From IMG/VR virus record IMGVR_UViG_2703718772_000005: DNA of 14,846 nt. The stretch is one strand, 5' to 3'. The notes beneath the pieces are model-generated. The model was not told the origin of the DNA. It worked only from the letters and a program-made list of their open reading frames with translations, and searched no databases. This document shows positions 1-12,652 of the stretch, one piece after another (the first letter of the stretch is position 1; each line of letters begins with the position of its first letter). The translations under genes were made by a program, and so were the position numbers. This DNA comes from a virus. Taxonomy: Duplodnaviria > Heunggongvirae > Uroviricota > Caudoviricetes.

Positions 1-182
1 CAATAAAAAGTGAAGAACTCCTGAGCAGCGCACCATCCTTCATAACCACCCCAATACAAGATGATAACATTGGCTTACAACTCATAACAAAAGCAATTCA
101 ATGCCGTCAAGAGGTTACAGGCTAAAAAAACTCTATTACATAGCAGCCAGCATGTTTACCGTACAAGTACAACTCAGGGCAT

Positions 183-208
183 AAAAAAAACCCACTCGGC
201 AGCGGGTT
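183..208 (-). terminator. Intrinsic terminator downstream of Q (tR'-like)
   Basis: Minus-strand transcript forms AACCCGCU-GCCG-AGUGGGUU hairpin (GC-rich stem with one G-U pair, tetraloop) running into a U8 tract (complement of the A-run 183-190). Sits about 50 nt downstream of the candidate late promoter. Confidence 0.6.
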
Positions 209-242
209 TATACATTTTTTACAACATACCAAATTTGCATGA

Positions 243-271
243 AGTATATGGCTTTTAATCCAGTTTTGCAA
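243..271 (-). promoter_or_regulatory. Candidate sigma70 late promoter (PR'-like), overlapping the Q stop codon
   Basis: On the minus strand: -35 TTGCAA (266-271), 17-nt spacer, -10 TATACT (243-248), A/T-rich upstream. Position immediately 3' of a Q-like gene and 5' of an intrinsic terminator matches the lambdoid PR'-qut-tR' layout. Confidence 0.45.
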
Positions 272-1028
272 TATTTTGCTGTAAAAATGCTGCCTTTTGT
301 TTTGAACGTGTTCTCGTCACAAGCAATAAAGCATCACTATCAAGCTGTAGAAAAATGTGCTTCATTGCAACCCAGCGTTCAGTAAATGTCTCGGACCAGT
401 TTTTTGTTGTCACTCCCACCAATGATGCCAGTGTCTGGTATTCATAGGCCTCACGCCCTGCAAGTTCGCTCTTCACATCCTGTGCAGCCAGCCAGATTAA
501 CGTCTTCAGGCGATCCAGTGTCTTACCTGCAATTTTTCTGTTACTTAACAAATCTTTAAACTCGCTCCATGCCCATTGCGTTATGGTGACCTGATGCCCC
601 CATCGAACGCTTTCGCTGTAACACCAAAGCAACCATGCTTTCTGATGTTCATCGAGAGACAAAACCGCGCGGCGCCATGAAGAGGTTGAGAATTCAACCG
701 GGCTGACCAAAGCAATGGATGAACCTTTTGCGTACGACTGCTTACCGGAAGTCGGCGTATTATCCAGCGTAATCATCTTGCCAGTTACCACATCCAGAAT
801 GCGCGGCTTCTTTCGTTTGTATGTACCAGTATCAAATTGTGCATGCTCCTGCCAGGCTTCGAGCTGGCCTTTCGTTGCTCCGTTCAAGTCAGCAGTAGCT
901 GCCATAAGTTGCTCACGAACATACTGTAAATATTGGGTATTCATGCAGTAAATCCTTTCTATATTTTGGCATAATTCTTCAACATTCGGTAATCGTTCAA
1001 AACCGAATCGGGGAAACGACATAAGCAC
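255..1028 (-). CDS. Q-like late-gene antiterminator (call mainly positional)
   Basis: 257-codon ORF directly downstream of ninH/rusA in the nin operon orientation, followed by a promoter plus terminator pair. I do not recognise which Q family it belongs to. Start is uncertain: track start is GTG at 1028; in-frame ATG at 1022 and ATG at 944 (AGGA 8 nt upstream) are alternatives. Confidence 0.55.
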   Translation of the reverse strand: MLMSFPRFGFERLPNVEELCQNIERIYCMNTQYLQYVREQLMAATADLNGATKGQLEAWQEHAQFDTGTYKRKKPRILDVVTGKMITLDNTPTSGKQSYAKGSSIALVSPVEFSTSSWRRAVLSLDEHQKAWLLWCYSESVRWGHQVTITQWAWSEFKDLLSNRKIAGKTLDRLKTLIWLAAQDVKSELAGREAYEYQTLASLVGVTTKNWSETFTERWVAMKHIFLQLDSDALLLVTRTRSKQKAAFLQQNIAKLD

Positions 1029-1135
1029 ACGAGCCCCCAGCGACAGCGAAGGAGTTCTGATATATAAGACTCAGACATCATTCATTCCCCGGTTCTCCAA
1101 TATCTGTTTCACTCATCATCCATAACTACCTGTAA

Positions 1136-1420
1136 TTGCCCCCCCCTTTTTTTGTAACAGTTCTTATATTGCTATATAGAATAGCCATTACTAATGCTTT
1201 TAAATTTAATAAAATAAAAATTATAAAAAACATAAAACACCACGCAAACACACTTAATAAAAACACCGTTACATTAAAAGATAATAAAAACCGCAATAAA
1301 AAACGAATAAATCAATTGTCTCACGCAATTATAAAACATCATATTGATTACGCACCTTGTATTACAAACTCATGTATGTAAAATACGCGCACCATTCAAA
1401 AAAAAGGAAGACAATAACAT
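1136..1420. promoter_or_regulatory. Strongly AT-rich divergent intergenic region between Q and the lpxR-like gene; candidate lpxR promoter
   Basis: Phased A-tracts (repeated aataaaaa-type motifs) suggest curved DNA. Candidate plus-strand promoter: -35 TTGTAT (1357-1362), 16-nt spacer, -10 TAAAAT (1379-1384); SD AAGGAAG about 10 nt before ATG 1421. The 81-aa ORF 1136..1381 is K/N-rich low complexity and probably not coding. Confidence 0.3.
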
Positions 1421-2380
1421 ATGAAAAAAAGTGTCATCGCTGGCGTCTTTATTGCTCTGTCATTTACCACGTGTTCAGCTATCGCGAACAGCCTTGCATT
1501 ATCATTAGCAAATGATGATGCAGGGAAGTTTCAACCAATACTTAATGATATTTATGGCAATAAACATGAAAACAGAGATGATTACTCACAAGGCTTATTT
1601 CTGGGATATAGCCACGATATCTCAGACTCGAGCCAATTATCTCTCCATATTGCGCAAGATATTTACTCTCCATCAGGCAGTAATAAAAGACACAACACAG
1701 CTGTAACTGGAGACAGAGCTTTTAGTGCATACACTCACACTGGTATTGAATGGAACTCCCTTGCGAATGACTGGATTCGCTATCGATTAGGTACTGACAT
1801 AGGTGTTGTTGGCCCCGACGCAGGCGGTCAGAAAGTACAAAATAAAGCTCATGAGATTATTGGGGCAGAAAAATATCATGCATGGGATGATCAAATAGAG
1901 AATCGCTACGGTTATACTGTAAAAGGGATGCTATCCATGACACCAAGTATGGATATTTTAGGTGCTAATGTTGGATTATACCCTGAAGTTTCTGCTGTTA
2001 CTGGAAACTTATTTCAATATGTAGCATATGGCGCAACCATTGCCATTGGTAATGATAAAACCTTCAATTCGGATAATGGCTTTGGTCTGCTGGCTCCCCG
2101 TGGTTTAATGCATATGTCCGATACAAGCGGATTCAAATACAAGATTTTTGCAGGTATGGAAAGACGAGATGTCAATCGCAACTATACTCTCGAAGGAAAA
2201 ACAATACAGACGAAACAAACAACAGTATCGCTAAACAAAACTGTTGATGAATATCAAGTTGGCGCAACAATTGGGTATGCACCTGTAGCCTTCACACTAG
2301 CATTTAATAAAGTAACATCAGAATTCAAGACAGGGGATGACTATTCATTTATAAATGGAGCAATCACCTTCTTTTTTTAA
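1421..2380 (+). CDS. lpxR: Outer-membrane beta-barrel, LpxR-family lipid A 3'-O-deacylase-like (prophage cargo gene)
   Basis: 319 aa, same length as Salmonella LpxR as I recall it. N-terminal signal peptide with AIA cleavage motif; C-terminal Phe (ITFFF) typical of OM barrels. If cleaved after Ala22, mature positions 9, 10, 34, 122 are N, D, S, H, matching my recollection of the reported LpxR active-site residues N9, D10, T34, H122. AT-rich and on the opposite strand to flanking phage genes. Confidence 0.7.
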   Translation: MKKSVIAGVFIALSFTTCSAIANSLALSLANDDAGKFQPILNDIYGNKHENRDDYSQGLFLGYSHDISDSSQLSLHIAQDIYSPSGSNKRHNTAVTGDRAFSAYTHTGIEWNSLANDWIRYRLGTDIGVVGPDAGGQKVQNKAHEIIGAEKYHAWDDQIENRYGYTVKGMLSMTPSMDILGANVGLYPEVSAVTGNLFQYVAYGATIAIGNDKTFNSDNGFGLLAPRGLMHMSDTSGFKYKIFAGMERRDVNRNYTLEGKTIQTKQTTVSLNKTVDEYQVGATIGYAPVAFTLAFNKVTSEFKTGDDYSFINGAITFFF

Positions 2381-2427
2381 CTGAATTGAATTCAATCAAA
2401 ATAACATAAGTCCAACAAAAACATAAA

Positions 2428-2462
2428 GTGCGAAATGAATGCCAGCTCCATTTATTTCGCAC
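2428..2462. terminator. Long hairpin between convergent lpxR and ninH; terminator-like, mainly for the minus strand
   Basis: GTGCGAAATGAATG / CATTTATTTCGCAC arms (14 bp, one G-U) around a 7-nt loop. On the minus strand it is followed by a U-rich tract (UUUAUGUUUUUGUUGG); on the plus strand by an A-rich tract, so weaker there. Confidence 0.5.
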
Positions 2463-2591
2463 TATAAAAGATTAAAAGTTGCAATAAAATAATAAAATGA
2501 CTCAGTTACGAAAACCAATAAACTGTGGCCAGTAGTGAGTCGCTCATCATCGGGCTTTTTGGCGAATGAAATTTAGCTACGCTTTCGAGTC

Positions 2592-2780
2592 TCATCGTCT
2601 TCCCCTCTTGCCCTGTTTGACCATCAGGACGCCGTTAACTATTACATGACGCTCGCCTTTGCTGTCTCGGTTGTACTTGAGCACTGTTCCTCTTGCGCAG
2701 GAAAGCATCCTCGCCACTTCGGTCTGATTGCCTCGTGTCTGGATAAGAAGCTCTGGTATCGTTTGAATTGTGGCGTTCAT
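2592..2780 (-). CDS. ninH: NinH-like protein
   Basis: 62 aa, resembles lambda NinH (IPxxL...GNQTEVAR...RGTV.KY motif). ATG overlaps the rusA stop as ATGA. Confidence 0.75.
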   Translation of the reverse strand: MNATIQTIPELLIQTRGNQTEVARMLSCARGTVLKYNRDSKGERHVIVNGVLMVKQGKRGRR

Positions 2781-3139
2781 GCGTTCTCCAGTTCGGTGAT
2801 TTTTATTCCAAGCCGTCCGCCTGGTACTTTCACACCACGAATTATGCGAATGTCATCGAATTGCTCGTCGTCTTCCGCAAATCCGGCATGGATAAGGGAG
2901 TCGAGTAAACCCTTCAGGATGTTATCTAGGTCGCGGCGGCGGGAGTCTGGAACGTCTGCGATTACTTTGATGCGGAGTCGTGATTTGGTGAAAATATCTA
3001 ACTTGAGTTGGTGGATGATTTGCTGAACGTCTTTTCGGTATTTCTGGCCTTTATCGCTGATGTAGTATTGGCTTCCCCGTCTTCGCCAGTAGGTATTCAC
3101 CGACGGCGGGTATGGAAGCACAAACTGATATTCGTTCAT
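2777..3139 (-). CDS. rusA: Holliday junction resolvase RusA
   Basis: 120 aa, clear similarity to E. coli RusA (LPxPPSxNxYxR, DRRRRDLDN, GGRL motifs). Start overlaps the ybcO stop. Confidence 0.9.
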   Translation of the reverse strand: MNEYQFVLPYPPSVNTYWRRRGSQYYISDKGQKYRKDVQQIIHQLKLDIFTKSRLRIKVIADVPDSRRRDLDNILKGLLDSLIHAGFAEDDEQFDDIRIIRGVKVPGGRLGIKITELENA

Positions 3140-3426
3140 GACTTAATCTTCCCCTCCTTCAGCAGTATCGCCTGCGTCCTGATCACGCCTTCGAGGTGGT
3201 AAAGTCTGGCGTCTTTGTTGTCGAGAATCCTTGTGCGTCGGTCGATCTCCGCGTGGCAGTCACTACAAGCCCATGCGCCGATCAGGTCGTCAGGCTTCAT
3301 CCCCGTTCCACAAATTCCAGCCATCCGGTAATGTGCCAGAACTGTAGTTTCAGGATTGCCATTGCATACGCCGTAAATACGTACCTGGCATTCTCTGCCG
3401 CGCGCTTCTTTGCGTAGGTTAGCCAT
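3136..3426 (-). CDS. ybcO: YbcO-like putative nuclease (DUF1364)
   Basis: 96 aa, strong resemblance to DLP12 YbcO (RGRECQVRI.GVCNGNPET.VLAH, CSxCHxEIDRRT). SD GGGAAGG upstream of the ATG. Confidence 0.8.
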   Translation of the reverse strand: MANLRKEARGRECQVRIYGVCNGNPETTVLAHYRMAGICGTGMKPDDLIGAWACSDCHAEIDRRTRILDNKDARLYHLEGVIRTQAILLKEGKIKS

Positions 3427-3631
3427 TTACCTTCCCTCGCAATTGAAGAATTGACTGAAGGTCTTTTTTAATAAATATGCGAGTGCGAATTGAGCAGTAG
3501 TTTTCCTTCATTCTGGCGTAGTAATAGTCCTTTCTTTGCTTAAGTTTGTTGGCATCCGCTGTCATCCAGTCTTTTACAGCAAACTTAATTAGCCAGCGGT
3601 GGCAGAGATACCATTTCAGGTAATCACTCAT
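3419..3631 (-). CDS. Hypothetical nin-region protein (70 aa), occupies the position of ninG in lambda
   Basis: ORF whose ATG lies 5 nt before the ninF stop (8-nt overlap) and whose stop overlaps the ybcO start. Basic, W/Y-rich; no family recognised. Confidence 0.45.
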   Translation of the reverse strand: MSDYLKWYLCHRWLIKFAVKDWMTADANKLKQRKDYYYARMKENYCSIRTRIFIKKDLQSILQLRGKVNG

Positions 3632-3800
3632 CGTCTTCTTCCTCGTACATTGAGCTATTCGGATCGCTCATCAGTTCTGCACAGCAGTGCTCACACACGT
3701 GAACTTCCAGCACATGCAGCTTCTGACCGCAGTTAGCGCACGTTAAAGCTCGCTCGACGCTTTCTTTCTGGTATTGAAGGGATTGGGATGGGCTAAGCAT
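3624..3800 (-). CDS. ninF: NinF-like small zinc-ribbon protein (58 aa, below the ORF-track cutoff)
   Basis: Hand translation gives [58 protein letters not shown], which matches lambda NinF as I recall it. Two Cys pairs (CxxC ... CxxCC) and an acidic tail. ATG overlaps the stop of the upstream gene. Confidence 0.8.
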   Translation of the reverse strand: MLSPSQSLQYQKESVERALTCANCGQKLHVLEVHVCEHCCAELMSDPNSSMYEEEDDE

Positions 3801-4165
3801 TATTGGATTCTCTGCATCATGAGAAAGACAATCATGGCGGCGCGAAGGGGATTTTCATGTATAGCTCGCTTAGATTTACAGTAGGCCACACCGCGTGCAC
3901 CCCACTCGTCTTCATCGAGATTGATAATGCTAATCCTGTATTTTTCAATAATCGGCCATGAGTCTGCTGGGTTTGCGCATGGGTTAAAGGATCCGCGCTC
4001 AACTTCTACTTCAACTGCGTCTCCGTTTACAATGTCTCCCTCAAATGAGACAAACACCATATCGCCATTCTCACCTTCTTTGTAATCCGGCGATCCGTTA
4101 TGAATGGCTTCGAATACCGCCACGTTAATTTCAAAATCACTTAACTGTGAATAATCCATTGTCAT
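3800..4165 (-). CDS. Hypothetical nin-region protein (NinX-like position), about 121 aa
   Basis: Track ORF 3800..4201 begins at GTG. The ATG at 4163-4165 forms an ATGA overlap with the ninE stop, consistent with the coupling pattern of the operon; ATG at 4157-4159 is an alternative. Acidic protein, family not recognised with certainty. Confidence 0.55.
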
Positions 4166-4338
4166 TTCCTCGCACGATGTCTTAGCCACCGGATATCCCA
4201 CAGGTGAGCCGTGTAGTTGAAGGTTTTTACGTCAGATTCTTTTGGGATTGGCTTGCGTTTATTTCTGGAGCGTTTCGTTGGAAGGTATTTGCAGTTTTCG
4301 CAGATGATGTCGGTGATACTTCGTCGCTGTCGTCTCAT
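4162..4338 (-). CDS. ninE: NinE-like protein (58 aa, below the ORF-track cutoff)
   Basis: Hand translation gives [61 protein letters not shown] overlaps the ninB stop (ATGA) and its stop overlaps the next start (ATGA). Confidence 0.8.
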
Positions 4339-4745
4339 TCGTACCTCCTGTCGGTAAATCTGACACCATGACCAATAGCCCAGGCTGTTGTGTACTCGAT
4401 AAGACTTGCCATACGCTTCACACTCATCTGCGCGCTGCTTTCGCGAATGTTGACGTATTCGCCTTCAAGCCCGGGAAAAACATCAGCTTCCTGTTTTGTT
4501 GCCACTGCATGACCGCTGATCAACAAAACCTTCCATTGTTCTGGTTTTAACCATTTGCCGCACCATTGAACCTGACGAGCGATATCCGCCAGCATCGCGT
4601 GAAATTTTGCGTTCTGGTCAAGGTTGCGCTTGTAGTCAGTAATGCGGATGGTGACTGGCTTGTCTTTATCGAGTGGTGTTGCGAGGATGGCATTTATTGC
4701 AGCTTGCTGTTGTTGCTTAGTTCGGAGGAAGATTGTTTGCTTCAT
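4335..4745 (-). CDS. ninB: NinB (Orf-family recombination mediator)
   Basis: 136 aa, similar to lambda NinB (N-terminal MK..., LDQN, W.GKWL motifs as recalled). First recognisable nin gene of the operon. Confidence 0.85.
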
Positions 4746-5079
4746 CGAAATTCTTCTCTTTAATTCCAGCGGCTCTGATAGCTTTCATTACTGCAATTAC
4801 CGTTTTGTCTCTCCCATCCTCATAACCCATCGCATAAGCACCTTCTTCACCATCTTTCCAAAAGTCGTCATTCGATTCGGGCCAGTCAATATCCAGTTCA
4901 ATAGCTGCTCGCGATGCCTGCCACGTTTGCCAGTGGCCTTGAACATCGTCCATCACGTATTGACCACCAATATCACCACTGCCAATTTCATGGTGATTTT
5001 CAGGGTAACGGATAAGGTCTGAGGATTCGCCTCCACGTCGCAACCAACTTTCTTCAAACTGCTTTCTTGATTCGTCCAT
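4717..5079 (-). CDS. Hypothetical acidic W-rich protein (120 aa)
   Basis: ORF with SD GAGGG about 10 nt upstream of ATG 5079; its 3' end overlaps the ninB start by 29 nt. No family recognised. Confidence 0.5.
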   Translation of the reverse strand: MDESRKQFEESWLRRGGESSDLIRYPENHHEIGSGDIGGQYVMDDVQGHWQTWQASRAAIELDIDWPESNDDFWKDGEEGAYAMGYEDGRDKTVIAVMKAIRAAGIKEKNFDEANNLPPN

Positions 5080-5096
5080 CGATACTTACCCTCAGT

Positions 5097-5303
5097 TCAA
5101 CTCACAAAACTCCACGCCATTTTTGCTACAGCGACAGGCATAACACCGATAATCACCCACAGGAAAATGCTACCGAAAAGCACACCCACCAGGTCTTTAC
5201 CTTCGCCTACCAACCGGACAAAACTGCTGGCAACAACAATGAACGTCGCCACCATCCACATAGCACCGAGAATCCTCAATGCAGAGAAAATTAACTCAGC
5301 CAC
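5097..5303 (-). CDS. Small hydrophobic protein, two predicted transmembrane segments (68 aa)
   Basis: GTG start with a very strong SD (GGGGGAGGG, 6-nt spacing). Two about 25-residue hydrophobic stretches separated by a short EGKD loop. Lies directly downstream of an intrinsic terminator. Confidence 0.4.
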   Translation of the reverse strand: MAELIFSALRILGAMWMVATFIVVASSFVRLVGEGKDLVGVLFGSIFLWVIIGVMPVAVAKMAWSFVS

Positions 5304-5318
5304 GATTTACCCTCCCCC

Positions 5319-5350
5319 AAATAAAAAGGCCTGCGATTACCAGCAGGCCT
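5319..5350 (-). terminator. Intrinsic terminator between the 96-aa and 68-aa genes
   Basis: Minus-strand RNA AGGCCUGC-UGGUAAUC-GCAGGCCU (8-bp GC-rich stem) followed by UUUUAUUU; 26 nt downstream of the 96-aa gene stop. Confidence 0.55.
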
Positions 5351-5375
5351 GTTATTAGCTCAGTGATGTAGATGG

Positions 5376-5666
5376 TCATTGCCTTACCTCCATAAGCGCC
5401 CTATTAATAAACGCCGTCATTGGATTTGCACATCCCCACCCCGTACCATCTGGATTTCTTTTAATTGGCTCCTTCTTCACTTTGCGTTTTGCATAAATAA
5501 CCGTCTTCCACTTACGCTCAACAACACTCAAATGTCCTTGTTTCACCATATGCCTTGCTGCTTGAGCGATTCTGTTATTTGGTATTCCGGTGATCAGTGC
5601 TAATTCATGTGGGGAGAATTGTTCATGAGTTTTCAGATATTCCAGGATGATTTCTTTTCCAGTCAC
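5376..5666 (-). CDS. Hypothetical DNA-binding protein (possible winged helix), 96 aa
   Basis: GTG start with SD AGGAG 7 nt upstream and an in-frame stop 4 codons upstream. Central segment (ELALITGIPNNRIAQAARHMVKQGHL) looks like a helix-turn-helix; basic C-terminal half. First gene on the minus strand after the rearrangement junction. Confidence 0.55.
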   Translation of the reverse strand: MTGKEIILEYLKTHEQFSPHELALITGIPNNRIAQAARHMVKQGHLSVVERKWKTVIYAKRKVKKEPIKRNPDGTGWGCANPMTAFINRALMEVRQ

Positions 5667-5694
5667 GATCTGCTCCTGTAACTATCCCATGTAA

Positions 5695-6288
5695 ACGCAT
5701 CTGAAACTGCAGACTGCGCAGGATTCAGACAATGGATTTTCGGCGCTTGAACAGGCGCTGCTGCGGTATATCGCCGCCGGTCTTGGCGTTTCCTACGAAC
5801 AGTTGTCCCGGGATTACTCGAAGGTCAGTTATTCAAGTGCCCGCGCCTCCGCCAATGAGTCGTGGCGCTATTTTATGGGACGACGAAAATTTATTGCGTC
5901 CCGGCTGGCCACGCAGATGTTTTCCTGCTGGCTGGAAGAGGCACTTCTTCGGGGGATTATTCGTCCGCCACGGGCGCGTTTTGATTTTTATCAGGCGCGA
6001 TCAGCCTGGTCACGGGCTGAGTGGATTGGAGCCGGAAGAATGGCCATTGACGGGCTCAAGGAAGTCCAGGAATCAGTGATGCGCATTGAGGCCGGACTGA
6101 GCACGTATGAGAAAGAGCTGGCGCTGATGGGCGAGGATTATCAGGACATTTTCCGCCAGCAGGTCAGGGAATCTGCTGAGCGACAAAAAGCCGGACTCTC
6201 ACGTCCGGTGTGGATAGCGCAGGCGTATGAGCAGCAGATAGCGGAGAGTCGCAGGCCGGAAGAGGAGACAACACCACGTGAGACGTAA
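5695..6288 (+). pseudogene. B: Portal protein B, 5'-truncated remnant (C-terminal about 195 codons only)
   Basis: Open frame from stop at 5692-5694 to 6288, no ATG before the TTG at 5803. Sits immediately upstream of and overlapping gene C, as the portal gene does in lambda; about 1 kb of expected upstream coding is replaced by minus-strand nin-module genes. Confidence 0.7.
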
Positions 6289-7783
6289 TCTTTCACACAT
6301 TATTGCCGCAGCATTCAATGAACCGCTGCTTCTGGAGCCCGCCTATGCGCGGGTTTTCTTTTGCGCGCTCGGGCGCGAGATGGGGGCATCAAGTCTTTCG
6401 GTACCACAACAGCAGGTACAGTTTGATGCTCCCGGAATGCTGGCTGAAACGGACGAGTACATGGCCGGAGGTAAACGACCGGCCCGTGTTTACCGGGTGG
6501 TGAACGGTATTGCTGTACTGCCGGTGACCGGCACGCTGGTGCACCGGCTGGGGGGTATGCGGCCATTTTCCGGAATGACAGGCTATGACGGCATTGTCGC
6601 CTGTCTTCAGCAGGCAATGGCGGATAGCCAGGTGCGGGGCGTACTGCTGGACATTGACAGTCCGGGCGGGCAGGCCGCCGGCGCGTTTGACTGCGCTGAC
6701 ATGATTTACCGCCTCCGTCAGCAGAAGCCGGTCTGGGCACTGTGCAATGACACGGCCTGCTCTGCAGCCATGCTGCTGGCGTCGGCCTGCTCCCGACGGC
6801 TGGTTACCCAGACATCCCGTATCGGCTCCATTGGCGTGATGATGAGCCATGTCAGCTATGCCGGTCATCTGGCGCAGGCCGGTGTTGATATCACGCTGAT
6901 TTACTCAGGGGCGCACAAGGTGGATGGCAATCAGTTTGAAGCGTTGCCGGCAGAGGTTCGCCAGGACATGCAACAGCGCATTGATGCGGCGCGCCGGATG
7001 TTTGCTGAAAAAGTAGCGATGTATACCGGTCTGTCTGTTGATGCTGTCACGGGAACAGAGGCCGCCGTTTTTGAAGGTCAGTCCGGCATTGAGGCCGGGC
7101 TGGCGGATGAATTAATCAATGCGTCGGATGCCATCAGTGTGATGGCCACGGCGCTGAACAGTAATGTCAGAGGAGGCACTATGCCGCAATTAACTGCAAC
7201 GGAAGCCGCCGCGCAGGAGAACCAGCGAGTGATGGGGATCCTGACATGCCAGGAAGCGAAAGGACGTGAACAGCTTGCCACGATGCTGGCAGGACAACAG
7301 GGCATGAGCGTTGAACAGGCCCGGGCGATTCTGGCCGCGGCGGCACCACAGCAGCCGGTGGCATCCGCGCAGAGTGAAGCCGATCGCATTATGGCGTGTG
7401 AAGAAGCGAAAGGTCGTGAACAACTGGCGGCAACGCTGGCGGCGATGCCGGAGATGACGGTGGAAAAAGCCCGCCCGATCCTGGCTGCTTCACCGCAGGC
7501 GGATGCCGGACCCTCACTCCGTGATCAGATCATGGCACTGGATGAGGCAAAAGGGGCTGAGGCGCAGGCTGAACAGCTGGCTGCCTGCCCGGGAATGACT
7601 GTGGAGAGCGCCCGGGCTGTGCTGGCTGCGGGATCAGGTAAGGCAGAACCGGTCTCTGCATCCACAACCGCCATGTTTGAACGCATCATGGCGAACCATT
7701 CACCGGCAGCGGTACAGGGTGGCGTGCCACAGACGTCAGCAGACGGTGATGCGGACGTGAAAATGCTCATGGCCATGCCATGA
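6278..7783 (+). CDS. C: Head maturation protease/scaffold protein C (lambda gpC-like)
   Basis: 501 aa. N-terminal two-thirds strongly resemble lambda gpC (FNEPL.LEPAYARVFFCAL, GIAVLPV.GTLV, GMTGY.GI, VWAL.ND, SIGVMM.H, ITLIYSG.HKVDGN). GTG start with SD GAGGAG upstream; overlaps the portal stop. Confidence 0.9.
   Translation: MRRNLSHIIAAAFNEPLLLEPAYARVFFCALGREMGASSLSVPQQQVQFDAPGMLAETDEYMAGGKRPARVYRVVNGIAVLPVTGTLVHRLGGMRPFSGMTGYDGIVACLQQAMADSQVRGVLLDIDSPGGQAAGAFDCADMIYRLRQQKPVWALCNDTACSAAMLLASACSRRLVTQTSRIGSIGVMMSHVSYAGHLAQAGVDITLIYSGAHKVDGNQFEALPAEVRQDMQQRIDAARRMFAEKVAMYTGLSVDAVTGTEAAVFEGQSGIEAGLADELINASDAISVMATALNSNVRGGTMPQLTATEAAAQENQRVMGILTCQEAKGREQLATMLAGQQGMSVEQARAILAAAAPQQPVASAQSEADRIMACEEAKGREQLAATLAAMPEMTVEKARPILAASPQADAGPSLRDQIMALDEAKGAEAQAEQLAACPGMTVESARAVLAAGSGKAEPVSASTTAMFERIMANHSPAAVQGGVPQTSADGDADVKMLMAMP
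7181..7783 (+). CDS. Nu3: Nu3-like scaffolding protein from an internal in-frame start within C
   Basis: In-frame ATG at 7181 preceded by AGGAGG (7171-7176). In lambda the scaffold Nu3 is translated from an internal start in the C frame (established knowledge); the exact start here is inferred. Confidence 0.5.
   Translation: MPQLTATEAAAQENQRVMGILTCQEAKGREQLATMLAGQQGMSVEQARAILAAAAPQQPVASAQSEADRIMACEEAKGREQLAATLAAMPEMTVEKARPILAASPQADAGPSLRDQIMALDEAKGAEAQAEQLAACPGMTVESARAVLAAGSGKAEPVSASTTAMFERIMANHSPAAVQGGVPQTSADGDADVKMLMAMP
7226..7631 (+). repeat. Three diverged tandem repeats (about 36-40 codons each) in the C/Nu3 scaffold domain
   Basis: Protein-level repeats RVMGILTCQEAKGREQLATMLAGQQGMSVEQARAILAAA / RIMACEEAKGREQLAATLAAMPEMTVEKARPILAAS / QIMALDEAKGAEAQAEQLAACPGMTVESARAVLAAG, starting near 7226, 7381 and 7523. 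DNA copies are diverged, so the duplications are old. Confidence 0.7.
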
Positions 7784-7819
7784 AGCCAGTGCTGACCATC
7801 AACAGGAGGTTTTTACAAT

Positions 7820-8167
7820 ATGGTGACGAAAACTATCACTGAACAGCGTGCGGAAATACGTATTTTTGCCGGTAATGATCCGGCTCATACCGCCACAGGC
7901 AGCAGCGGGATTTCCTCGGCAACACCGGCACTGACGCCCCTGATGCTGGATGAGGCCACCGGGAAACTGGTGGTCTGGGACGGACAAAAAGCCGGTAGTG
8001 CGGTTGGCATACTGGTACTGCCGCTTGAAGGCACAGAGACGGCGCTGACCTATTACAAGTCGGGGACCTTTGCGACGGAGGCAATCCGCTGGCCTGAAAG
8101 TGTGGATGAACACAAAAAGGCCAACGCCTTTGCCGGCAGTGCCCTGAGTCACGCGGCGCTGCCGTAA
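7820..8167 (+). CDS. D: Head decoration protein D (gpD-like)
   Basis: 115 aa, similar to lambda gpD (DPAHTAT, TPLMLD, KLV.WDG, AVGIL, YYKSGTF, TEAIRWPE, AFAG). SD AGGAGG upstream. Confidence 0.9.
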   Translation: MVTKTITEQRAEIRIFAGNDPAHTATGSSGISSATPALTPLMLDEATGKLVVWDGQKAGSAVGILVLPLEGTETALTYYKSGTFATEAIRWPESVDEHKKANAFAGSALSHAALP

Positions 8168-8175
8168 CACGTTAT

Positions 8176-8195
8176 CAGGCCACCGCGGTGGCCTG
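8176..8195 (+). other. Perfect GC-rich palindrome in the D-E intergenic region
   Basis: CAGGCCACC-GC-GGTGGCCTG followed by ACUGAUUUCUGAAUG; possible attenuator or RNA-stability hairpin. The U tract is weak for a terminator. Confidence 0.3.
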
Positions 8196-8224
8196 ACTGA
8201 TTTCTGAATGAAAGGAACTGATTT

Positions 8225-9253
8225 ATGGGATTGTTTACGACCCGCCAGTTACTCGGTTATACCGAACAAAAAGTGAAATTTCGTGCGCTGTTTCTGGAGC
8301 TGTTTTTCCGCCGTACGGTGAATTTCCATACCGAAGAGGTGATGCTGGACAAAATTACCGGAAAAACGCCGGTGGCGGCCTATGTTTCCCCGGTTGTTGA
8401 AGGAAAAGTGCTGCGTCATCGTGGTGGTGAAACCCGCGTGTTACGTCCGGGCTACGTCAAGCCGAAACACGAATTTAATTACCAGCAGGCGGTTGAGCGT
8501 CTTCCCGGTGAAGATCCGGCTCAGCTGAACGACCCGGCCTACCGTCGTCTGCGTATCATCACTGATAACCTCAAACAGGAAGAGCACGCCATTGTCCAGG
8601 TGGAAGAAATGCAGGCGGTGAATGCCGTGCTGTATGGCAAATACACGATGGAAGGAGACCAGTTCGAGAAAATTGAGGTCGATTTTGGCAGGTCGACGAA
8701 GAATAACATCACTCAGGGTAGTGGTAAGGAGTGGTCAAAACAGGATCGTGACACGTTCGATCCTACACATGATCTTGACCTCTACTGCGACCAGGCCAGC
8801 GGTCTTGTGAATATTGCCATTATGGACGGTACCGTCTGGCGTCTGCTGAATGGCTTTAAATTGTTCCGCGAAAAACTGGATACCCGTCGCGGCTCTAATT
8901 CGCAACTCGAAACAGCGGTGAAAGACCTGGGCGCGGTGGTGTCCTTCAAAGGGTATTACGGCGATCTGGCCATTGTGGTGGCAAAAACGTCTTATGTGGC
9001 AGAGGACGGTACCGAAAAACGTTATCTGCCTGAGGGCTCGCTGGTCCTGGGGAATACGGCAGCAGAGGGCATTCGTTGCTATGGTGCCATTCAGGATGCG
9101 CAGGCGTTGTCCGAAGGTGTGGTGGCCTCTTCCCGTTATCCGAAACACTGGCTGACGGTAGGGGATCCCGCCCGTGAATTTACCATGACGCAGTCCGCGC
9201 CGCTGATGGTGTTGCCGGACCCGGATGAGTTTGTGGTGGTACAGGTGAAATAA
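8225..9253 (+). CDS. E: Major capsid protein E (gpE-like)
   Basis: 342 aa, extensive similarity to lambda gpE along its length (YVSP.V.G, PGYVKPKHE, DPAYRR.RII, VEEMQAV.AVL.GKYTM, NNITQ, TRRGSNS.LETAVKDLG, YPK.W.T.GDPAREFTM.QSAPLM, DPDEFV.VQ). SD AAGGAA upstream. Confidence 0.95.
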   Translation: MGLFTTRQLLGYTEQKVKFRALFLELFFRRTVNFHTEEVMLDKITGKTPVAAYVSPVVEGKVLRHRGGETRVLRPGYVKPKHEFNYQQAVERLPGEDPAQLNDPAYRRLRIITDNLKQEEHAIVQVEEMQAVNAVLYGKYTMEGDQFEKIEVDFGRSTKNNITQGSGKEWSKQDRDTFDPTHDLDLYCDQASGLVNIAIMDGTVWRLLNGFKLFREKLDTRRGSNSQLETAVKDLGAVVSFKGYYGDLAIVVAKTSYVAEDGTEKRYLPEGSLVLGNTAAEGIRCYGAIQDAQALSEGVVASSRYPKHWLTVGDPAREFTMTQSAPLMVLPDPDEFVVVQVK

Positions 9254-9260
9254 TCCGTGA

Positions 9261-9290
9261 GCGGGGGCGAAATGCCCCCGTGTCTTTTTT
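9261..9290 (+). terminator. Intrinsic terminator/attenuator just after the major capsid gene
   Basis: CGGGGGC-GAAAU-GCCCCCG hairpin followed by UGUCUUUUUU, immediately 3' of the E stop and 5' of the FI RBS. Confidence 0.55.
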
Positions 9291-9304
9291 CACAGGGGGA
9301 TGAT

Positions 9305-9679
9305 ATGGCAACGAAAGAGCAAAATCTGAAACGGCTTGATGAACTGGCCCTGATTCTGGGGCGTGAGCCGGATATATCCGGGAGTGCCGCAGAGATAGCG
9401 CAGCGGGTGGCAGAATGGGAAGAGGAAATGCAGTCATCCGGCGATGATGTACAGGTTATGAATATGGATATCCGGGAGAGGGAAAACGCGGCTCATGATG
9501 TTCGTGAGGAAACATCCGGCGCGTTAACGCGCATCAGAGTTCTGACCTGCCTCCATCTCTGTGGCGTTGATGGTGAAACGGGGGAATCCGTTGAGCTTGC
9601 GGATGTTGGTCGGGTGATTCTGATTATGTCCTCAGATGCAAAAACACACGTTGATGGTGGAATGGCTGTTTATGCGTGA
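9305..9679 (+). CDS. FI: DNA-packaging protein FI (gpFI-like)
   Basis: ATG at 9305 with SD AGGGGGA upstream. The track ORF starts earlier (9257) but that region contains the terminator hairpin. Position between E and FII; acidic protein; similarity to lambda FI is weak. Confidence 0.7.
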   Translation: MATKEQNLKRLDELALILGREPDISGSAAEIAQRVAEWEEEMQSSGDDVQVMNMDIRERENAAHDVREETSGALTRIRVLTCLHLCGVDGETGESVELADVGRVILIMSSDAKTHVDGGMAVYA

Positions 9680-10025
9680 TTTTCAGAATGCCTTTGATGC
9701 CGCCCTTGCCGGGGTGGACAGTACGATTGTTGAAGTGATGGGCATCAGTGCGCAGTTCACCTCCGGTGCACAGCGTGGCGGCGAAGTTCAGGGGGTTTTT
9801 GACGATCCGGAGTCGCTGGGGTTTGCCAGTAGTGGGATCCGTATTGAAGGAAGCAGCCCGTCATTATTTGTGCGGACGGATACGGTTCGTGCCGTGCGGC
9901 GTGGTGACACGTTGACCATTAATGGTGAGACGTTCTGGGTGGATCGTGTTTCTCCGGATGACGGGGGCAGTTGTTATCTCTGGCTGAACCGTGGGCAACC
10001 ACCCGCAGTTAACCGGCGACGATAA
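9672..10025 (+). CDS. FII: Head-tail joining protein FII (gpFII-like)
   Basis: Starting at ATG 9672 gives 117 aa, strongly similar to lambda gpFII (F.NAFDAA, RGVFDDPE, VRVEGSSPSLFVRTD.VR..RRGDTLTI, FWVDRVSPDDGGSC.LWL.RG.PPAVNRRR). Overlaps the FI stop by 8 nt. Confidence 0.85.
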   Translation: MRDFQNAFDAALAGVDSTIVEVMGISAQFTSGAQRGGEVQGVFDDPESLGFASSGIRIEGSSPSLFVRTDTVRAVRRGDTLTINGETFWVDRVSPDDGGSCYLWLNRGQPPAVNRRR

Positions 10026-10039
10026 ACGCAGGGTGAATT

Positions 10040-10615
10040 ATGGCGATAAAAGGGCTTGATCAGGCGATTGAAAATCTGAGCCGGGTTCGTAAAAACGCCA
10101 TTCCGTCGGCTTCAGCAATGGCTATTAACCGCGTGGCTACAACGGCGATTAATCAGTCTTCATCACAGGTTGCCCGGGAGACCAGGGTGAGCCGGAAACT
10201 GGTAAAGGAACGGTCCAGACTGAAACGGGCGACGGTCAGAAATCCGAATGCCAGAATTATCGTTAACCGCGGTGATCTCCCTGCTATTAAGCTGGGGATC
10301 AGGATGCTTGGTCATCGTCCGAACAGCATACTTAAAGCCGGTCAGCATCGTTATCAGCGGGCATTCATCCAGCGATTAAATAATGGGCGCTGGCATGTTA
10401 TGCAACGTTTGCCAGAAGCCCGGTATGCGAAGGGCAATGACGATAAAGGAAGGAAAAAGCGTAATCGTCTTCCCATTCAGGTGGTTAAAATTCCGATGGC
10501 GGCCCCACTGAAGCAGGCTTTTGATGAGAACGTTAACCGTATCCGGCGAGAACGTCTGCCAAAAGAACTGGGCTATGCGTTGAAACAACAACTAAGGATT
10601 GTGATAAAGCGATGA
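10040..10615 (+). CDS. Z: Tail completion protein Z (gpZ-like)
   Basis: 191 aa, resembles lambda gpZ (MAIKGLD.AI.NL start as recalled); canonical position after FII; stop overlaps the U start (ATGA). Confidence 0.85.
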   Translation: MAIKGLDQAIENLSRVRKNAIPSASAMAINRVATTAINQSSSQVARETRVSRKLVKERSRLKRATVRNPNARIIVNRGDLPAIKLGIRMLGHRPNSILKAGQHRYQRAFIQRLNNGRWHVMQRLPEARYAKGNDDKGRKKRNRLPIQVVKIPMAAPLKQAFDENVNRIRRERLPKELGYALKQQLRIVIKR

Positions 10616-11007
10616 AACATACTGATATCCGTGCTGCAGTGCTGGATGCACTCGAGCAGCATGAACACGGGGCGACGCTGTTTGATGGTCGCCCCGCTGT
10701 TTTTGATGAGGCGGATTTTCCGGCAATTGCTGTTTATCTCACCGGCGCTGAATACACGGGCGAAGCGCTGGACAGCGATACCTGGCAGGCGGAGCTGCAT
10801 ATTGAAGTTTTCCTGCCTGCTCAGGTGCCGGATTCAGAGCTGGATTCGTGGATGGAAAGCCGGATTTATCCGGCGATGAGTGCGATCCCGGCACTGTCAG
10901 GCCTGATTACCACGATGGTTACGCAGGGCTATGAGTATCGTCGTGATGACGATATGGCGTTATGGAGTTCTGCTGATTTGACTTATTCCATTACATACGA
11001 GATGTGA
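10612..11007 (+). CDS. U: Tail terminator protein U (gpU-like)
   Basis: 131 aa, the same length as lambda gpU; canonical position between Z and V. Confidence 0.85.
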
Positions 11008-11014
11008 GGACGAT

Positions 11015-11767
11015 ATGCCAACACCAAATCCTCTGGCACCGGTAAAAGGTGCCGGTACCACCCTGTGGGTTTATAACGGTCAGGGTGATGCCTATGCAAA
11101 CCCGTTGTCAGACGATAACTGGCAGCGACTGGCACAGGTAAAGGATCTGACGCCGGGCGAGATGACGGCAGAACCCTACGATGATAACTACCTGGATGAT
11201 GAAGACGCGGACTGGACTGCGACCGGGCAGGGGCAGAAGTCTGCAGGAGATACCAGTTTTACGCTGGCCTGGAAACCGGGAGAAGAAGGTCAGAAAGGGC
11301 TTATAGGCTGGTTTGAAAGCGGGGATGTGCGGGCCTATAAAATCCGTTTCCCGAACGGCACGGTGGATGTGTTCCGTGGCTGGGTCAGCAGTATCGGTAA
11401 GGCCGTAACGGCGAAGGAAGTGATCACCCGTACGGTGAAAGTGACCAACGTGGGTAAACCTTCTGTGGCGGAAGAACGCAGCGAAATTACGCCGGTCAGT
11501 GCGATTAAGGTGACGCCGACATCCGGTACGGTGGCAAAAGGGAAAACAACCACCCTGACGGTTTCTTTTGAGCCGGAAAGTGCAACAGACAAGACGTTCA
11601 GAGCGGTTTCCGCCGATCCGTCGAAAGCCACCATTAGTGTGAAAGATATGACAATTACGGTAAACGGCGTGGCGACAGGTAAGGTGCAGATCCCTGTGGT
11701 GAGCGGAAATGGTCAGTTCGCCGCAGTGGCTGAAGTCACCGTTACTGAAGCGGGCGCTGCAGGGTAA
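11015..11767 (+). CDS. V: Major tail tube protein V (gpV-like) with C-terminal Ig-like domain
   Basis: 250 aa, strong similarity to lambda gpV ([103 protein letters not shown]); C-terminal T/V-rich segment typical of the Ig-like domain. Confidence 0.95.
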
Positions 11768-11780
11768 ACGGAGGTAATAC

Positions 11781-12212
11781 ATGTTTCTGAAAACCGAACA
11801 ATTTGAATATAACGGTGTGTCCGTCACGCTTTCCGAGCTGTCTGCGCTGCAGCGTATCGAGCATCTTGCCCTGCTGAAACGACGGGCAGAACAGGCTGAA
11901 GCCAGCGGTAACCTGCAGGTGAGCGTGGAAGACCTTGTCAGAACCGGCGCGTTTCTGGTGGCGATGTCCCTGTGGCATAACCATCCACAGAAAACGGAGT
12001 CACCGTCAATGAATGAGGCCGTGATGAAGATAGAGCAGGAAGTGCTCACCACCTGGCCTGCCGATGCCATTGCCCGGGCGGAAGACGTGGTGTTGTGCCT
12101 GTCCGGGATGATCGAAGCTGTTCGTCCGGATACTGATATTACTGAAGTGGCGAAAAATAACACGCTGACTGATGATGATTTTTCTGCGGGAAAGTCTTCG
12201 ACGGCGAGCTGA
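11781..12212 (+). CDS. G: Tail assembly chaperone G (gpG-like)
   Basis: 143 aa, strong similarity to lambda gpG (MFLKTE.FE.NGV.VTLSELSALQRIEHLAL.KR.AEQAE..., AFLVAMSLWHNHPQKT). SD GGAGG upstream. Confidence 0.9.
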   Translation: MFLKTEQFEYNGVSVTLSELSALQRIEHLALLKRRAEQAEASGNLQVSVEDLVRTGAFLVAMSLWHNHPQKTESPSMNEAVMKIEQEVLTTWPADAIARAEDVVLCLSGMIEAVRPDTDITEVAKNNTLTDDDFSAGKSSTAS

Positions 12213-12652
12213 ACTTTGCCCTCAGACTGGCGCGTGAGATGGGGAGACCCGACTGGCGCGCCATGCTTGCCGGGATGACATCCACCGAATATGCCGACTG
12301 GCACCGTTTTTACCGCACGCATTATTTTCAGGATACCCAGCTGGATATGCATTTTTCCGGGCTGACGTACGCTGTACTCAGCCTGTTTTTTTGCGATCCG
12401 GATATGCATCCCTCTGATTTCAGTCTGCTTGTCCCCCGGCATGAGGAAGAGCAGGTGGAGAGGCCGGATGAGGACAAAATGCTGATGCAGAAAGCGGCAG
12501 GACTTGCCGGAGGCGTCCGGTTCGGTGGGGACGGAGGGCGCGATATTTTATCGTCTGCGGATGTGGCGGATGTCATGGTGGATGATGCCGCATTAATGAT
12601 GGCTTCAGCGGGGATTTCCGGAGGTGTGAGATATGTCCCAGCCGGTTGGTGA
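11781..12652 (+). CDS. T: G-T fusion chaperone made by programmed -1 ribosomal frameshift (gpGT-like)
   Basis: Slippery heptamer G GGA AAG at 12188-12194 in the G frame, 6 codons before the G stop. The -1 frame is open from there to the TGA at 12650-12652 (track ORF 12239..12652 is the distal part). Matches the lambda G/GT arrangement. Confidence 0.8.
12188..12194 (+). other. Programmed -1 frameshift slippery site GGGAAAG
   Basis: Heptamer read directly; in-frame as G GGA AAG in gene G. Confidence 0.8.

Follow-up and report, generated by a model that had tools for sequence, protein, structure and literature searches.

In phage lambda, the gene order is pR-cro-O-P-ren-tR2 (PMC3640518), and both ren and the nin genes are dispensable, delayed-early genes (PMC10695390; PMC8022706). 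The Rex proteins interact in two-hybrid experiments with O and Ren, which are listed together as 'phage replication proteins', and ren itself is described as 'likely involved in DNA replication' (Thomason et al., bioRxiv 10.1101/2021.04.19.439022). The terminator tR2 follows ren and is itself followed directly by ninB; genes for a 68-amino acid (aa) and a 120-aa protein, which occupy this interval in other lambdoid phages, are not found in lambda. Phage mEpX1 carries gp48, named 'Ren-like exclusion protein', and gp49, and HK022 carries two uncharacterised open reading frames (ORFs) of the nin region, HK022_58 and HK022_59. Here, we describe the corresponding interval in a DNA stretch of 14,846 nucleotides from a member of the Caudoviricetes (IMG/VR virus record IMGVR_UViG_2703718772_000005; the whole stretch is called the window below). 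According to its ORF list, Pfam matches and RefSeq annotation, the window is a defective lambdoid prophage, in which three ORFs of 96, 68 and 120 codons precede ninB on the minus strand. Very probably, this locus comprises already known, non-essential delayed-early accessory genes that form the ordinary left end of a lambdoid nin region.

Results

Three genuine genes of catalogued families

The three ORFs are real genes and not chance frames, because the exact sequence of each protein occurs in at least 1000 public contigs, all three proteins have strong PHROG matches (E 1e-34 to 1e-40), and the 68-aa ORF is conserved in length and in its ratio of nonsynonymous to synonymous substitution rates (dN/dS). 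Each ORF has a purine-rich ribosome-binding site (RBS), and the ORF list and upstream sequences agree with the limits and good RBS reported in a preliminary description of the window. RefSeq annotates all three as coding sequences (CDS) in E. coli O111:H- 11128 (WP_000145948.1, WP_000818841.1 and WP_000344554.1), named hypothetical proteins. One could argue that one or more of them are chance reading frames, as they are short, two have a GTG start and overlapping plus-strand ORFs are present. Against this stand the full-length PHROG matches, the RefSeq annotation, length conservation with purifying selection, and homologues down to 31-42% identity in distant phages, which make a chance origin exceedingly improbable.

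The preliminary description had regarded the three genes as orphans of no recognisable family. This does not hold, as all three fall into PHROG families, the 96-aa protein being Ren-like and the 120-aa protein belonging to PF26207. It had correctly placed the ORFs in the ren or accessory-gene slot of a lambdoid phage and seen no enzymatic hallmark. A search of NCBIfam returned no model for any of the three proteins, nor for the protein that RefSeq names 'phiTE_015 family protein'. The Pfam scan of the three proteins detected no toxin, holin or Imm family, and PADLOC gave a single noise-level match, WH_III-A (E 0.018, 96-aa protein), and none for the other two. Rfam yielded just two matches, both far under the gathering scores. 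In the literature, we found no paper naming phiTE_015, PF26207, the WP accessions or phrog_1165; for phrog_343 a single paper came up, which looks unrelated, and a preprint on a phage accessory-gene screen contains no mention of nin, ninB, lambdoid or HK022. The coordinates of the features are collected in Table 1.

Table 1 Features at the left end of the nin region, with coordinates in the window.
Feature	Position	Strand	Details
Helicase-loader gene (DnaC/IstB type), last 33 nt	5667..5699	-	Holds the Ren-like RBS; TGA stop overlaps the Ren-like GTG (GTGA)
Ren-family gene	5376..5666	-	96 aa; GTG start; AGGAG 7 nt upstream
'NinA' mini-ORF	5296..5379	-	27 aa (MTIYITELITGLLVIAGLFIWGRVNRG); from translation; absent from the preliminary description
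Intrinsic terminator tR2	5317..5350	-	8-bp GC-rich stem AGGCCTGC/GCAGGCCT (5327-5350), 8-nt loop, then TTTTTATTT
Gene for 68-aa protein with two transmembrane segments (phrog_1165)	5097..5303	-	GTG start; GGGGGAGGG upstream; first translated slot after tR2
Gene for 120-aa acidic protein (PF26207 / phrog_343)	4717..5079	-	ATG start; GAGGG upstream; last 29 nt overlap ninB
Mosaic indel module with the phiTE_015-family gene	4748..5096	-	blastn block limits against mEpX1, HK022 and HK620; absent from mEpX1
ninB (Orf-family recombination mediator)	4335..4745	-	Pfam NinB E 1.5e-55, RefSeq; downstream anchor of the region

A ren homologue behind the remnant of a helicase-loader gene

The profiles of two PHROG families detect the 96-aa protein, phrog_1687 at E 6e-40 and phrog_142, 'Ren-like exclusion protein', at E 3.5e-13. 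BLASTP aligns it with lambda Ren (NP_040633) at 43% identity over residues 1-58 (E 3e-15), covering the N-terminal two thirds only. The two proteins are equal in length and share the MTGKE... N-terminus as well as membership in phrog_142, whereas the C-terminal 38 residues of the window protein are unrelated in sequence to those of lambda Ren. The Ren-like proteins of phages mEpX1 and N7 are 99% identical to it, and in UniRef the exact sequence is entered as 'Phage exclusion protein', close variants of it as 'MarR family transcriptional regulator'. Together, these matches identify the gene as a ren homologue.

Structurally, residues 1-66 of the protein putatively form a winged-helix-like domain, and a basic tail makes up the C-terminus. 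The Pfam model MarR_2 reaches 17.8 bits, which is below the gathering cutoff of 27 and gives no membership; weak MarR_2 matches of this kind recur in all seven Ren-family members scanned. A Ren-family profile retrieved winged-helix domains only from the PDB (ADAR1 Z-alpha, AspA, ArsR/SmtB, CRP and MarR, E 0.008-1), and a phmmer search of the Ren-like protein against the PDB returned nothing. The AlphaFold2 (AF2) model, with a predicted local distance difference test score (pLDDT) of 48 from a shallow alignment, contains three N-terminal helices, does not resolve the wing and is too poor for a fold search; the homologues found were nine near-identical sequences. These observations are consistent with a winged helix at a sub-threshold level and support the fold class, not MarR membership. 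The fold type given in the preliminary description therefore survives, on uniform but weak Pfam and PDB matches, while its placing of the protein in lieu of Ren does not, the gene being the ren homologue itself.

The position of the gene agrees with this assignment. It overlaps the end of the last replication gene and has tR2 directly downstream, just as lambda ren is immediately preceded by the helicase-loader gene and immediately followed by tR2. The layout is the same in mEpX1, where 4 nt are common to the DnaC-like and the Ren-like CDS, and in an intact prophage (L013) on a contig of E. coli that was assembled from a metagenome. Unlike in lambda, the intact relatives of the window gene follow a loader of the DnaC/IstB type and not lambda P. 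In Hafnia prophages (L011, 3078-3500; L012, 3009-3500), a protein of 140-163 aa with an N-terminus about 20% identical to the Ren family is encoded directly after the loader gene, irrespective of whether the loader is IstB-like or lambda-P-like. The Ren-like slot after the loader is conserved beyond Escherichia.

Such a fixed position raises the question whether the main task of the Ren-like protein is accessory to replication, in loader, helicase or origin function, and not counter-exclusion. The gene always comes directly after and overlaps the last replication gene, be it lambda P, a DnaC/IstB-like or a DnaB-like gene, and its location before tR2 implies co-expression with O and P. The view of Thomason et al. 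of ren in replication, with O and Ren as Rex interactors, points in the same direction. On the other hand, ren is dispensable for lambda plaque formation (PMC10695390) and is unnecessary for P-lethality or replicative killing (PMC3640518). We regard a chiefly accessory role as possible, though on balance unlikely. By analogy with lambda, we expect the role of the Ren-like protein to be replication-linked counter-exclusion, because Thomason et al. reported both the interactions of Rex with O and Ren and a likely involvement of ren in replication.

The closest phage relative of the window gene, mEpX1, differs from lambda in lacking RexAB. Its gp41-gp42, located beside cI (L019, 2472-3880) in the slot of lambda rexA-rexB, match the PADLOC models PDC-M63A (E 1.8e-41) and PDC-M63B (E 7.5e-45), together with DUF6932.

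Terminator tR2 and the NinA mini-ORF

The Ren-like and 68-aa genes are separated by an intrinsic terminator and an overlying mini-ORF. The terminator was found by a terminator scan, and its hairpin is retained in the RNA fold. It is identical to the HK620 stretch annotated 'terminator tR2' and to the lambda stretch between ren and ninB, and the DNA around it (5312-5394) has 93% identity to lambda and 98.5% to a P22-like phage. The 27-aa ORF, annotated ninA in HK620, SPN9CC and HK630, is linked to both neighbours, its ATG overlapping the Ren-like stop codon (ATGA) and its own stop codon overlapping the GTG of the 68-aa gene. NinA and tR2 of the window are near-identical to those of P22 and HK620, and the DNA of the NinA stretch is near-identical among lambda, HK620, SPN9CC and mEpX1.

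The mini-ORF is hydrophobic, and its DNA is almost invariant although the upstream proteins end in different frames. Its conservation may reflect service as a terminator and recombination linker, not the encoded protein. We also considered whether the 68-aa ORF is NinA, as suggested by 'ninA' labels in tblastn rows. This was rejected, since NinA of HK620 and SPN9CC is the 27-aa ORF over tR2; the labels arise because this annotated ORF and the beginning of the unannotated 68-aa ORF overlap.

A conserved 68-aa membrane protein in the first slot after tR2

The 68-aa protein matches phrog_1165 ('unknown function') over its entire length (E 1.8e-36, residues 1-68 of 68). Its hydropathy profile has two hydrophobic stretches (about 4-30 and 38-66) flanking a GEGKD loop, in agreement with the two transmembrane (TM) segments of the preliminary description. 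No Pfam family (E up to 1), NCBIfam model or PADLOC family was detected for it. Homologues are present in 107 phage records, each spanning 80% of the protein or more, and include HK022, HK75, HK629/630, mEpX1 (gp49, 91% identity), mEp235 and 48 Stx2a phages, with identity falling to 54% in HK620 and 42% in P22-like phages. The family comprises 197 protein clusters, nearly all of exactly 68 aa, and the ORF has a constant length of 207 nt in six phages. At high divergence (against HK620 and SPN9CC, with synonymous sites near saturation), dN/dS is 0.26-0.42. The best-conserved parts are TM2, the GKD loop and a C-terminal AKxAW(R/S)F motif.

In every phage inspected, the gene occupies the first slot after tR2 and uses a conserved linker between tR2 and the RBS; in lambda, this linker precedes ninB instead. 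The ORF is often unannotated in phages, for instance in HK620. Small two-TM proteins are in some cases toxins or superinfection-exclusion factors. In size and hairpin layout, the 68-aa protein resembles T4 Imm, GhoT/OrtT and class II holins, which are functional analogues only: sequence similarity to them is absent, and the Pfam (E up to 1) and PADLOC searches were empty. In the intact E. coli prophage (L013, 4420-4605), the phiTE_015 gene and ninB have an additional 61-aa ORF between them, which encodes two hydrophobic stretches and falls into no Pfam family; the window does not contain it.

A recombinant member of the phiTE_015 family

The 120-aa protein is acidic and rich in tryptophan, as described before (pI 4.47, net charge -13, 5 Trp). 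It matches phrog_343 (E 2.7e-34), and a RefSeq protein 99% identical to it is named 'phiTE_015 family protein'. PF26207 (Phage_phiTE_015) is precomputed on all of its close homologues (98% identity and below). The assignment was made through these homologues and not by a direct hmmscan match; the Pfam scans of the protein itself were empty because the Pfam copy scanned does not contain the PF26207 model. Alignment of the family profile with gene 015 of Pectobacterium phage phiTE by hhalign has a probability of 98.4% (E 6.7e-15). The window protein shares with this type member the conserved motifs, the size and the nature of a small stand-alone phage protein; unlike the window prophage, phiTE is a virulent rV5-like phage with different gene neighbours. 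Orf41 of Pseudomonas phage D3 also belongs to PF26207 according to the note in its record.

A profile search of 1.8 billion representatives yielded 731 clusters, nearly all of them stand-alone proteins of 85-140 aa. The conserved parts of the family are an N-terminal SRxQFExW helix, a WxxWQASRAAIE core and an IRAAG(I/L)KVK end, with two variable segments between them. The AF2 model of the window protein has a mean pLDDT of 77, exceeding 90 at residues 11-50, and a weak acidic middle with low confidence at residues 61-90; a fold search with this model gave no match. Longer members of the family (the distant P0261, P0299, P0315, P0332, and P0016 at L013 4001-4417) carry short N-terminal additions, either a CxxCxGTG...CDC mini-domain of about 35 aa, which is probably zinc-binding, or an MRWAIKHKSGR... 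segment, and one member has both. These add-ons match no Pfam family and hence give no domain-fusion clue to function.

Within the gene, a breakpoint is located at about 4898, where HK022-type DNA (97% identity) ends just after the WQASRAAIE motif. The window protein is close to HK022_59 only in its N-terminal half, and its C-terminal half is of the 933W / VT2-Sakai type. The last 10 codons derive from the ninB module, and the gene has a 29-nt overlap with ninB. Phages accordingly match differing portions of the protein (residues 1-109, 50-120 or 4-65). From these blocks, the gene in the window is a recombinant. The N- and C-terminal variable halves of the phiTE_015-family gene are shuffled among HK022, 933W/Sakai, Skate and the window prophage.

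Conserved motifs that enclose variable segments would also suit a different reading, in which the genes behind tR2 are lytic-phase counter-defence or superinfection-exclusion factors and the phiTE_015 protein is a scaffold with two hypervariable specificity segments. The motifs SRxQFExW, WxxWQASRAAIE and IRAAGxKVK flank the two segments in distant members as well, the intragenic breakpoint falls at a conserved motif, and nearly all clusters of the family are small stand-alone proteins. The acidity and low-confidence segment of the window protein, the Lar-like restriction-alleviation gene adjoining the phiTE homologue, and a limited likeness of the 68-aa protein to T4 Imm, which is confined to size and two-TM layout, may be added. 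Neither sequence nor fold links these proteins to known anti-defence or superinfection-exclusion (Sie) proteins, the 68-aa and 120-aa genes co-occur inconsistently, and no paper was found on either family. We give this reading little credence. The same applies to its joint form, which we likewise consider improbable, where the phiTE_015 segments, shuffled by recombination on a conserved helical scaffold, would bind variable targets of the host or of rival phages, the 68-aa protein would act at the inner membrane, and the Ren-like protein might neutralise a non-Rex defence such as PDC-M63.

Separate mosaic blocks rather than a cassette

Returning to the reading of ordinary nin-region accessory genes, the three genes differ in their ancestry. 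A block common to mEpX1, HK620 and HK630 spans 4200-4747, an HK022-like block spans 4898-5355 and an mEpX1-like block spans 5097-5699, the latter two at 97% DNA identity each (blastn). Gene orders vary correspondingly. In mEpX1, the order is DnaC-Ren-like-68aa-ninB; unlike the window, this complete phage with an intact pR operon lacks the 120-aa gene, and gp49 abuts ninB. The order in HK022 is helicase-...-68aa-105aa homologue-...-ninB, so that it shares two genes in equal order upstream of ninB with the window, but it lacks ren, and its genes follow a DnaB-type helicase. HK620 has the order helicase-ninA/tR2-(unannotated 68-aa ORF)-ninB. In HK022, HK620, HK630 and the prophages L014/L015 alike, the 68-aa gene comes after a DnaB-type helicase gene without ren. 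The intact E. coli prophage L013 encodes cI, cro, cII, O, a DnaC-like protein, a Ren-like protein (100% identity to the window), the 68-aa protein (94%), a phiTE_015 member (69%), the 61-aa membrane ORF and NinB. Members of the phiTE_015 family are also encoded between the loader gene and NinB in Hafnia prophages.

The families differ in their distribution as well. The 120-aa family and lambda-type Ren are each found in 38 Stx1a phage records, and the 68-aa gene in 48 Stx2a phages. Some part of the trio occurs in 2019 of 5426 complete E. coli genomes; 41 contain the exact trio, and the records seen among these belong to the O111 lineage. None of the phage records covers at least 80% of the interval 4300-5800 (trio and ninB). 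Because tR2 and NinA lie between the first and second gene, and because the genes belong to distinct mosaic blocks, the evidence indicates that they are not a co-functioning cassette but separate blocks that assort independently.

This bears on the central suggestion of the preliminary description, a three-gene cassette in which the DNA-binding and the membrane protein work as a single module of exclusion, toxin-type or regulatory cargo. Developed further, this module would serve the host, could be of the toxin-antitoxin type and might include the acidic protein. The suggestion draws on the adjacency and common orientation of the genes, on the link of lambda Ren to an exclusion phenomenon and the UniRef name of the 96-aa sequence, and on the toxins and superinfection-exclusion factors known among small two-TM proteins. 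The terminator between the first two genes, and the many phages in which the genes are found apart, each without the other, contradict both the cassette and the functional pair. Cargo of the exclusion, toxin or regulatory type also finds no counterpart in the searches, where PADLOC remained at noise level and Pfam contained no toxin, holin or Imm match, nor in the DNA, where no promoter-like site was seen. In intact phages, the genes are part of the lytic pR operon, for which lysogens are in the repressed state, and Ren, far from being an exclusion system, serves the infecting phage to counter exclusion. A host-benefiting module is therefore very unlikely.

The rearrangement junction and the state of the locus

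In transcription direction, the three ORFs are followed on the minus strand by ninB, ninE, ninX, ninF, a 70-aa ORF, DUF1364, rusA and ninH, and, past a plus-strand lpxR-family gene, by ylcG and Q. From about 5700, the plus strand carries head and tail genes of the lambda type along with a truncated portal gene. The 97% DNA identity to mEpX1 runs to base 5699 and stops there, marking a rearrangement junction at 5699/5700. Here, the pR operon breaks off 33 nt upstream of the Ren-like gene, where it is joined to the truncated portal gene.

Over bases 1-12300 of the window, the span covered by the fetched locus, the sequence is 100% identical to E. coli O111:H- 11128, the sole difference being an IS3-family element of about 1.3 kb (IS629/IS1203 type) at 5699/5700 of the reference. 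An insertion sequence (IS) of this type stands at the junction in each of the 34 E. coli genomes with at least 80% coverage of the interval 4300-6300, and most O111 genomes hold IS629 there. Four other O111 genomes lack it and read ...AAACGCA-TGA-TCTGAAAC, and the window, also without the IS, lacks those three bases as well (...AAACGCA-TCTGAAAC). The IS flanks, CAAG and ATGA, are not a target duplication. Overall, the junction (L001, 7401-8715; L009, ~1570) looks like an IS-mediated rearrangement that was followed by imprecise IS excision with different footprints. Differing excision footprints are expected where an IS-excision enhancer is active.

A consensus scan detected no sigma-70-like site on either strand between 4200 and 6300, nor on the minus strand up to 9000. 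With pR, N and the replication genes gone and no sigma-70-like site upstream, the genes in the window are probably silent passengers of a defective O111 prophage and not expressed. They also do not have the features of a moron, as the scan showed no promoter of their own, the sole strong terminator (tR2) is upstream of the 68-aa gene, and the genes are tightly packed or overlapping. Elsewhere in the window, an LpxR-family lipid A deacylase gene (1421-2380, plus strand) is located between ninH and Q and adjoins a short antitermination-protein pseudogene (2524-2595, minus strand; RefSeq, identical O111 sequence). This gene looks like a moron-type insertion into the nin/Q region.

Discussion

Judging from its relatives, the intact phage would have had the order cI, cro-cII-O-helicase loader-Ren-like-(ninA/tR2)-68aa-phiTE_015-(other small genes)-ninB...Q. 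In such a phage, the Ren-like gene, translationally coupled to the last replication gene and placed before tR2, would be co-expressed with the replication genes. If lambda is a guide, the 68-aa and 120-aa genes behind tR2 would be expressed only upon N-type antitermination. We postulate that the Ren-like protein may protect its own lytic and replication programme from prophage-encoded exclusion by binding DNA or a replication or exclusion protein. The 68-aa protein could form a helical hairpin in the inner membrane, with both termini predicted inside from the charge distribution, that acts on the membrane during lytic growth. The small acidic 120-aa protein, putatively soluble and built of a conserved helical core with two hypervariable segments that recombination has shuffled, would most likely bind and inhibit a variable partner. 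Both of these roles, the membrane-acting hairpin and the acidic binder or inhibitor, are proposed with low confidence.

Several points weigh against this picture. The proposed roles derive from analogy in the case of Ren and from composition and architecture for the other two proteins. The Ren-like protein and lambda Ren share just their N-terminal 58-66 residues, and the winged-helix assignment draws on sub-threshold matches and a poor AF2 model. Moreover, mEpX1 is the closest free-living relative and has a PDC-M63-type candidate defence pair, not RexAB, beside cI, so an anti-Rex role is not simply transferable to the Ren-like protein. As to the silence of the locus, the absence of promoters comes from a consensus scan only, and read-through or weak promoters are still possible.

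For the locus itself, the importance of these findings is small, as its genes are common, catalogued lambdoid accessory genes that are probably silent relics here, with no sign of a new system. At the level of the families, phrog_1165 and PF26207 are widespread, with hundreds of clusters and at least 1000 contigs for the exact sequences, and they occupy a fixed slot right after tR2. Two of the three families have no assigned function, and how Ren works has yet to be solved. Assigning a function to any one of them would provide an annotation for thousands of prophage genes, among them genes of Shiga-toxin phages.

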